Origin: a virus
Lineage: Duplodnaviria; Heunggongvirae; Uroviricota; Caudoviricetes
Reading direction: 5' to 3' (one strand)
Length of the DNA: 64,000 bases
Virus record (IMG/VR): IMGVR_UViG_3300035498_002028
Shown: piece after piece, positions 57,382 to 57,529 of the stretch
Position numbering within the stretch: position 1 is the stretch's first letter
How the letters are laid out: every line of letters starts with the position of its first letter
Program-made: the position numbers and the translations under genes
Notes under the pieces: generated by a model
What the model was told of the DNA's origin: nothing
Database searches by the model: none
The model's input: the letters and a program-made list of their open reading frames with translations, nothing else

Positions 57382-57529
57382 AGTATCATGCCAGATTCGA
57401 ACTGGCGCATACATCGTATGTCGCTTTCGCCTATCGCCTGCTACCCACTCTTATCGTCACGAGATATAATAGGATTCAAACCTATTCATGGACAGAACAC
57501 CGACAGCTCTACCGCTGAGCTAATGATAC
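57382..57529 (-). ncRNA. Unusually long tRNA-like gene (148 nt) with a roughly 100-nt insertion between D-arm and T-arm
   Basis: Acceptor 5' strand GTATCAT plus TA plus D-arm GCTC-AGCGGTA-GAGC at 57529-57505. T-arm GCCAG-TTCGAAT-CTGGC and the perfectly complementary acceptor 3' strand ATGATAC at 57407-57383. The insert has a second T-arm-like hairpin (ATAGG-TTTGAAT-CCTAT), a GNRA-type hairpin (GCGAAAGC) and a CATAC-GAT-GTATG hairpin. Confidence 0.45.

Follow-up and report, generated by a model that had tools for sequence, protein, structure and literature searches.

A predicted tRNA-shaped RNA family of phage tRNA arrays with a conserved three-way-junction domain at the anticodon-loop position

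Phage tRNA arrays are mainly read as codon-usage or anti-defence devices, the latter by replacing tRNAs that have been cut by host nucleases. Group I introns of bacterial or phage tRNA genes, usually at least about 200 nt long, are inserted in the anticodon loop and are patchily distributed. Ponchon and Dardel are said to have described in 2007 an engineered "tRNA scaffold", in which a structured RNA is grafted on the tRNA anticodon stem and the chimera is reportedly processed and stabilised like a tRNA. In natural phages the only precedent found by our literature searches is a set of unexplained insertions of 79-114 nt ("enigmatic introns") at position 37/38 of Lak megaphage tRNAs, all of which insertions contain a T-arm-like hairpin (Devoto et al., 2019; PMC6784885). 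Here we analysed a 64,000-nt stretch of DNA from a virus assigned to Caudoviricetes (IMG/VR record IMGVR_UViG_3300035498_002028; the whole stretch is called the window below), which holds a 148-nt gene, hereafter the element, at 57382..57529 on the minus strand. Comparison with its homologues shows the element to be a conserved, covarying phage gene, located in tRNA arrays, for a predicted tRNA-shaped RNA in which a conserved domain replaces the anticodon loop.

The original prediction described a tRNA-like gene of 148 nt with a structured insertion of roughly 100 nt between its D arm and T arm. The gene, both arms and the insertion are confirmed in the sequence on the minus strand; the insertion is not merely somewhere between the two arms, it stands where the anticodon loop would be, on top of an anticodon stem that covaries. 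The element, including the discriminator U, scores 136.7 bits (E 1e-30) with covariance model (CM) R2 and reads GUAUCAU-UA-GCUC-AGCGGUA-GAGC-U-(~97 nt)-GCCAG-UUCGAAU-CUGGC-AUGAUAC-U, with about 99 nt from D arm to T arm. RNA position n equals window coordinate 57530-n (position 1 = 57529; position 148 = 57382), and every part listed here lies on the minus strand. Comparison of homologous loci gave seven lineages (A-G; the window belongs to A) with 8 sequences on unrelated phage or metagenome contigs, and a single secondary structure, described here in lineage A numbering, fits all 8. The 5' acceptor strand GUAUCAU (positions 1-7; 57523..57529) pairs 7/7 with AUGAUAC (positions 141-147; 57383-57389), which is followed by discriminator U148 without an encoded CCA (57382..57389 in all); the predicted acceptor complementarity is kept in the homologues, with compensatory changes in all 7 pairs. 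The D arm GCUC-AGCGGUA-GAGC (positions 10-24, stem 10-13/21-24; 57506..57520) carries G18 and G19, and this D-loop GG is kept in 8/8 sequences. At the 3' side, the variable loop GUAUGC (118-123) and the T arm GCCAG-UUCGAAU-CUGGC (124-140, stem 124-128/136-140) span 57390..57412; four of the five T-stem pairs covary, and the variable loop is 4-6 nt long across the family. Read from the alignment, base 15 and the last base of the variable loop covary in the Levitt manner (G:C in A and B, A:U in D, E and F).

The anticodon stem has no 7-nt loop. It extends through a bulged A (A113, in 7/8 aligned sequences, missing in lineage E) into a long helix that leads to a three-way junction. Two features branch from this junction: a GNRA hairpin of 2 bp, and another helix in which a GUA bulge is invariant and which ends in a second T-loop hairpin and a variable hairpin. 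Positions 26-42 (57488..57504) make up the 5' strand of the long arm and include the invariant GUUCYGUCC; the distal 3' strand of the arm (82-92; 57438..57448) includes GGGUAGC, invariant in 8/8 sequences, with the 3-nt bulge G86 U87 A88 (57442-57444), and the proximal 3' strand lies at positions 108-117 (57413..57422). The four helices (26-29/114-117, 30-34/108-112, 35-38/89-92 and 39-42/82-85) are 95.7-100% paired, with compensatory changes in 8/17 pairs. The inner T-loop hairpin UAGG-UUUGAAU-CCUA (positions 46-60, stem 46-49/57-60; 57470..57484) is 100% paired, covaries in 3/4 pairs and has the canonical loop UUCGANU in lineages C-G. It had been predicted with a 5-bp stem; the comparison confirms the hairpin, with covariation, but A and B have just 4 bp (UAGG/CCUA) in common, the fifth pair being broken in B. 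A variable region follows (positions 61-81, UAUC-UCGUGAC-GAUA in the window; 57449..57469), which differs in sequence and length in each lineage and is 43% identical between A and B. The junction linker G-N-R-AUAG (93-99) and the hairpin GC-GAAA-GC (100-107, stem 100-101/106-107) occupy 57423..57437; the AUAGG at their boundary is invariant. This GNRA-type hairpin is also real: its closing pair 101:106 covaries, C-G being replaced by U-A, and GAAA gives way to GAGA in the loop of one lineage (G). A third predicted hairpin, CAUAC-GAU-GUAUG, is not supported: in lineage B one of its pairs becomes a C·A mismatch, and in all lineages the bases concerned belong instead to the 3' strand of the long arm and to the variable loop. 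The core as a whole, GUUCCGUCC … GGGUAGCGGGNGAUAGGCGAAAGCGAC (~80 nt), is nearly invariant over seven lineages, whereas the sequence of the tRNA body diverges freely between lineages with its base pairs kept. A compact tertiary fold is suggested by the unpaired bases that are invariant (GUA bulge, AUAGG, GNRA and T loops). Speculatively, the inner T loop and the GG of AUAGG could touch in the manner of a T loop and a D loop. No conserved open reading frame was found in the element, and an AUG...UGA frame in lineage A is missing from B.

Close relatives were collected via gut-metagenome contigs that carry relatives of a 744-aa protein encoded downstream of the element (54844-57078, minus strand). 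Copies 100% identical to the element are present in contigs L005, L006 and L007 (lineage A). In lineage B the element is ~79% identical to that of the window (L008, L009, L010 and L023, with partial copies in L011 and L024), and the 744-aa protein of these phages is 87-88% identical. Between A and B, identity is 79% for the element, 74% for the following spacer, 82% for the 744-aa gene and 99% for tRNA-Lys. Three other relatives (L003, L012 and L025; 744-aa protein 77-85% identical) have tRNA-Lys followed by the conserved spacer, with the entire 148 nt missing and clean flanks; they are not intron-less alleles. A search pattern derived from the best-conserved 3' block yielded lineages C-G. The lineage C element follows tRNA-His on a contig binned in an Oscillospiraceae metagenome-assembled genome (L027), D follows tRNA-Phe (metagenome contig L049), F follows tRNA-Glu (metagenome contig L072), and G, with 71% GC in the element, lies between tRNA-Ile and tRNA-Arg on an IMG/VR contig (L102). 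Lineage E comes from a 1.25-kb locus on a metagenome contig (L051) with uninformative flanks and no tRNA called; it has an extra 20 nt between positions 34 and 35. The element is thus in a tRNA array in all six lineages with flanks available. No protein is common to the window and loci C-F. Other searches were less productive: blastn against the INPHARED phages returned only ordinary tRNA matches, exact or degenerate patterns made from lineage A alone gave no match or tRNA-Met genes only, and a pattern of the inner T arm plus GGGTAGC hit an adjacent tRNA-Ser/tRNA-Val pair, a false positive. A first metagenome scan for the element gave no match; a second gave 71 loci, 68 of which were a ParB-like coding gene matching by chance. 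The 8-sequence CM found no second copy of the element in the window or in the relatives searched.

Support for the family comes from the comparative evidence, because the folding energy by itself is not significant (RNAfold z = -0.8 against shuffles, with conflicting single-sequence folds). In the alignment of 8 sequences, the structure has 39 pairs that are 98.4% paired, and 24 of them are changed on both sides (69 cells); these counts are somewhat inflated since the multi-lineage alignment was fitted to the CM, although parses of C-G made by eye agree with it. None of the 500 shuffles reached the observed pairing score, and shifted-register controls were 36-50% paired with 5-9 both-side-changed pairs. 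The A/B alignment alone, made by MAFFT, is 100% paired and contains four compensatory changes (2:146 U-A→C-G, 36:91 U-A→C-G, 101:106 C-G→U-A and 124:140 G-C→A-U), two one-sided changes (30:112 G·U→G-C and 42:82 U·G→U-A) and no disruptive ones; all A/B substitutions outside loops preserve the structure. With a CM trained only on A and B, lineages C-G score 77-100 bits (E 1e-20 to 1e-27), and the 8-sequence CM scores members at 121-151 bits versus at most 43 bits for ordinary tRNAs. As judged from these comparisons, the element is neither a chance resemblance nor a pseudogene.

In all 8 sequences the acceptor stem has 7 bp, the D arm carries G18G19 and the T arm has a UUCRANY loop, and the three helices covary; what is absent is the 5-bp anticodon stem with a 7-nt loop bearing U33 and a purine at 37. 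Default ARAGORN and the Rfam gathering thresholds do not call the element, and the family is probably under-counted because standard tRNA finders and Rfam miss it. The acceptor 5' strand is GUAUCAU, GCAUCAU, GUUGAGA, GCAAGUG, CUAUAAG, ACAGAUA and CGGAAGG in the successive lineages and the discriminator U, G, A, U, U, A and C. Since the discriminator and the first base pairs vary in this way, there is no common synthetase identity set. We also noted that base -1 is able to pair with the discriminator in 5/7 lineages. Encoding of CCA matches the local convention in 5/6 testable lineages: in A and B it is encoded neither by the element nor by any tRNA, and the window phage has a CCA-adding enzyme (21308-22573); in C, F and G, CCA is encoded by every neighbouring tRNA and also by the element itself (ACCA, ACCA and CCCA, respectively). 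That CCA encoding tracks the local rule argues for a functional tRNA-type 3' end.

The element resembles several known systems in part. Like the Lak introns, it concerns genes of gut phage tRNA arrays, an anticodon-loop insertion with a T-arm-like hairpin, the lack of an Rfam match and sequences that bacterial-mode tRNA finders miss. Lak exons, however, make up canonical tRNAs (Tyr-GUA, Phe-GAA and others), their insert being at 37/38, while the element has no canonical anticodon loop and removal of its insert does not restore a canonical tRNA of identifiable isotype. In addition, the T arm of Lak inserts stands beside an acceptor-like 3' strand, forming a mini-tRNA, whereas the T-loop hairpin of the element tips a long arm with a GNRA three-way junction; no common core sequence is visible between the element and the two Lak introns compared in full. 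With canonical tRNAs (RF00005) it shares acceptor stem, D and T arms, variable loop, tertiary-pair pattern, array location and CCA convention, but its anticodon loop is swapped for a domain of ~80 nt. Group I introns share the site of insertion and the patchy distribution; the insert of the element is only ~82 nt without a P3-P9 core, too short for such an intron and too long for a variable arm, as had been noted, and no group I (Intron_gpI), ribozyme or other Rfam family matched at E up to 10. The tRNA-like domain of tmRNA and the YrlA RNAs, both of which kinds occur in the window phage, are likewise non-decoding RNAs with a tRNA-like module joined to another functional domain. Yet tmRNA lacks a full D arm and has an open reading frame and pseudoknots, whereas the element has a complete cloverleaf body (no tmRNA match, RF00023, in the Rfam scan), and YrlA is circularly permuted, its acceptor stem closed and its ends in the "anticodon" stem, whereas the acceptor ends of the element are open. 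In its architecture the element looks like nature's equivalent of the tRNA scaffold, which is man-made; the element is natural and its grafted domain is conserved across phages. Rfam 15 does not contain the family, and our literature searches for the core, or for such a tRNA-like family, returned only the Lak-phage precedent. The element does not have all the defining features of a Lak intron, a tRNA, a tmRNA or a YrlA RNA.

We consider it probable that these sequences form an undescribed family of phage tRNA-shaped RNAs, with a T-loop-bearing three-way-junction domain of ~80 nt for an anticodon loop, which would be either tRNA-mimic effectors (for example, decoys or inhibitors of host factors acting on tRNA anticodon arms, whether to attack or to read them) or the first members of a new class of small tRNA introns working with phage RNA repair enzymes. 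On balance we lean towards a non-decoding tRNA mimic, processed like a tRNA and CCA-ended, that presents the conserved domain, a function that is inferred. The transcript would be cut from the array by RNase P and by RNase Z or exonucleases, as for its neighbours, and the RNA would gain or keep a CCA end and stay unspliced. It would be incapable of decoding, since it lacks a U33/R37 anticodon loop and the domain appears too bulky for the decoding site. The tRNA body may provide processing, stability and docking to a tRNA-binding partner, and the conserved domain may be the active part, as decoy or inhibitor of an anticodon-arm enzyme (e.g., a host anticodon nuclease or modification enzyme) or as a binding platform. 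If true, an array member with a whole tRNA body and CCA end but an invariant folded domain for an anticodon would be a new kind of player in such arrays, and as a mimic it would be an RNA decoy or inhibitor exploiting tRNA recognition. The CM from the present analysis offers a handle for finding further members. Several observations weigh against the mimic reading. The family sample is only 8 sequences in seven lineages, with pair counts inflated as stated above, and lineage D departs from its local CCA convention. A conserved protein neighbour that could point to a partner was sought near the family loci and none was found, no Pfam domain recurring near C-F. In lineage E (L051, oriented minus strand) the acceptor helix is lengthened by a perfect 15-bp flanking inverted repeat, GTCATTAAGTTAAGA … TCTTAACTTAATGAC, which does not look like a simple RNase P/Z substrate. 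To these are added three points in favour of an intron: an insert placed exactly at the tip of the anticodon stem, with a core conserved in divergent bodies as in mobile introns; the RNA repair enzymes of the phage; and the Lak precedent.

A pre-tRNA with a new class of anticodon-loop intron is a possible but unlikely alternative. Here the core would be excised, by self-cleavage or by a host or phage nuclease, and the halves healed by the kinase/HD enzyme and joined by the phage RNA ligase into a working tRNA. The healing and sealing enzymes mentioned in the original prediction are indeed encoded (RNA ligase, 14768-16078; AAA_33 kinase plus HD protein for end healing, 12662-13675; also the CCA-adding enzyme and RlaP, 23607-24644), and they could seal exons; the gene is also patchily distributed among close relatives, and the Lak inserts (79-114 nt, with T-arm-like hairpins and no Rfam match) are similar in kind. 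The difficulty lies in the product. No contiguous excision gives a 7-nt loop with U33 and a purine at 37 in any lineage, and what remains in every lineage once the core (positions 32-110) is cut out is a 4-bp stem with a 5-nt loop. ARAGORN in intron mode proposed a tRNA-Cys(GCA) interrupted at 32/33 by an intron of 57 nt and having a variable arm of 25 nt, a model that we rejected because its anticodon stem (25-29/94-98) is broken in lineage B. When all contiguous deletions were enumerated and ARAGORN was run on each, no consistent canonical tRNA emerged. The sole recurrent call, a "Glu-UUC" with a giant variable region, has an arm (GUCGG/UCCAU) that is 70% paired with the middle pair broken in 7/8 sequences, and, as read from the sequence, it would place G at 33 and a pyrimidine at 37. 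All seven lineages would need identical, unusual invariant "anticodon" bases. The absence of ribozyme or group I matches also speaks against an intron, as do the closest relatives without the insert, which lack the entire gene; no intron-less allele was seen. A novel intron, one of the original proposals, is therefore ranked second, given no canonical loop by excision, no Rfam match, no bulge-helix-bulge (BHB) motif and no intron-less allele; it is retained on account of the Lak precedent, the core conserved in divergent bodies, and the phage RNA ligase and end-healing enzyme. If it is an intron, it is a new type that would explain the ligase and end-healing enzymes and shed light on the Lak introns.

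An archaeal- or eukaryal-type BHB intron, or a complete tRNA nested in a tRNA, both suggested originally, we regard as scarcely credible. A tRNA is called by ARAGORN in intron mode and a T-arm-like hairpin does sit inside the insert, but BHB splicing calls for two 3-nt bulges 4 bp apart, and the only 3-nt bulge (86-88) has no partner bulge 4 bp away on the opposite strand, which is continuous between 34 and 35 in 7/8 sequences (lineage E has its 20-nt insertion there); the setting, moreover, is bacterial/phage. As for nesting, the bases 3' of the inner T arm pair with no upstream acceptor strand and differ completely between lineages, and the Rfam tRNA model gives just 20.5 bits versus a 29-bit threshold, using the inner T arm with the acceptor unpaired. 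It is improbable, if less so, that the element works with RNA repair or quality control as YrlA does with Rsr/Ro60 and RtcB, tethering or regulating an enzyme of repair or decay. In favour, the phage carries genes for RNA repair and, 2.5 kb away, a separate YrlA-topology RNA (54706-54827, minus strand; 17 compensatory pairs), and the element combines a tRNA-like module with an extra structured domain. The topology of the element is the reverse of that of YrlA: it ends in the acceptor stem and has no closing Ro-binding stem, which also speaks against the Y-RNA-like chimera of the original prediction. The Rfam YrlA model (RF02553) does not match the element itself; a nearby match straddles the T arm of tRNA-Lys and the D arm of the element, and there is none in L027. 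The neighbouring 744-aa protein has no TROVE/Ro60 match and matches NF041916 (RING_SCO0854) instead, and loci C-F have none of the window's neighbouring proteins. Finally, a tRNA gene broken by an insertion or by partial tandem duplication (hence the second T arm), now functionless and decaying, is very improbable. The D arm and 5' anticodon-stem strand of the element are identical to those of phage tRNA-Met genes, a duplicated T-arm region could have left behind the inner T arm and the GUUC motif, and the RNAfold z value is only -0.8; against decay stand the seven lineages on unrelated contigs with 24 covarying pairs and a near-invariant core, the lack of any pair-breaking A-to-B substitution and the CCA encoding. 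The covariation effectively refutes this explanation.

Along the direction of transcription, ARAGORN places tmRNA, tRNA-Gln, tRNA-Trp, tRNA-Lys and then the element, which is the terminal gene of the array and starts 1 nt past tRNA-Lys(UUU). It had been placed directly upstream of tRNA-Lys, Trp and Gln, which is correct in plus-strand coordinates only; as transcribed, it comes last. The upstream array genes (57531..58431, minus strand) are tmRNA (58033-58431), tRNA-Gln (57884-57956), tRNA-Trp (57609-57682) and tRNA-Lys (57531-57605), found by ARAGORN and Rfam, with a sigma-70-like promoter upstream of the array (58555-58527, minus strand). The tmRNA gene lies directly 3' of the RNase H1 gene (58579-59175, minus strand) and has the tag peptide ANTELKAVA; tags in relatives differ (ANNEVRMAA, ANRQYSMVA and ANTELRMVA).

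No close relative of the window phage, which is uncultured, was found in INPHARED by blastn, which returned ordinary tRNA matches only. Besides the enzymes given above, the phage codes for an NAD-dependent DNA ligase, many DNA methylases, a Tad2-like protein, a TnpB protein and the RNase H1 protein. The gene of the 744-aa protein is next to both tRNA-like RNAs. This protein matches NCBIfam NF041916 (MXAN_6230/SCO0854 family RING domain protein) at E 4e-127, under the curated cut-off; no Pfam domain and no similarity to Ro60/TROVE was found in it. It is labelled "TerD family" or "SCP2" in the sources, and its relatives in gut metagenomes number thousands. The TnpB-type open reading frame (51029-52627, minus strand) has a Cas12f1-like TNB domain and weakly matches OrfB_IS605; lineage-A contigs (L005) carry it, and lineage-B phages do not have it at the same position. 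The motif GGCTA-N10-TCCTTCT occurs in the window in 9 copies at ≤1 mismatch, where chance would give 0.19. Eight of these copies lie on the coding strand, apparently between genes (57343-57364, 57247-57268, 57138-57159, 54812-54833, 53264-53285, 50301-50322, 50207-50228 and 50066-50087, all minus strand); one begins 18 nt past the element and another just before the YrlA-like RNA. The motif is a candidate phage-specific promoter or regulatory site. A TTCCTTCT motif is also repeated in L003 and L004.

The YrlA-topology RNA of the window lies just past the stop of the 744-aa gene, and similar RNAs are present in relatives (L025 2615-2738, L013 5253-5366, L010 ~5245-5385 and L003 ~6235-6370). Inside its long closing stem are an anticodon-like stem, a T arm (CAGG-UUCGAUU-CCUG), an acceptor-like hairpin that is closed, and a D-arm-like hairpin containing GG. 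Aligned over its full length, the Rfam YrlA model scores only 18.3 bits versus a gathering score of 69, and 17 of the 41 pairs in the RNA are compensatory (RNAalifold). No Ro60/TROVE gene adjoining it was found. In the 64-65% identity clade of relatives (L015-L020), a 475-aa reverse transcriptase fused to YAcAr/DprA-like domains is encoded just upstream of the tRNA array. A 92-nt tRNA-Gln(UUG) with a variable-region insertion of ~21 nt (AAGAGCCTACCGGTTCGCCCG) is present in L015 (1806-1897), L016 (1835-1926) and L020 (2108-2199); the same tRNA-Gln is 74-76 nt long in sister phages L017 and L018, and L022 has a similar 92-nt tRNA-Ile(UAU). A 97-nt tRNA-like sequence that ARAGORN does not call, with acceptor GUUUCGU/ACGAAGC, a D arm, a T arm and an odd 43-nt middle, is found in L017, L018 and L021 (7781-7877), directly past tRNA-Ser(UGA).

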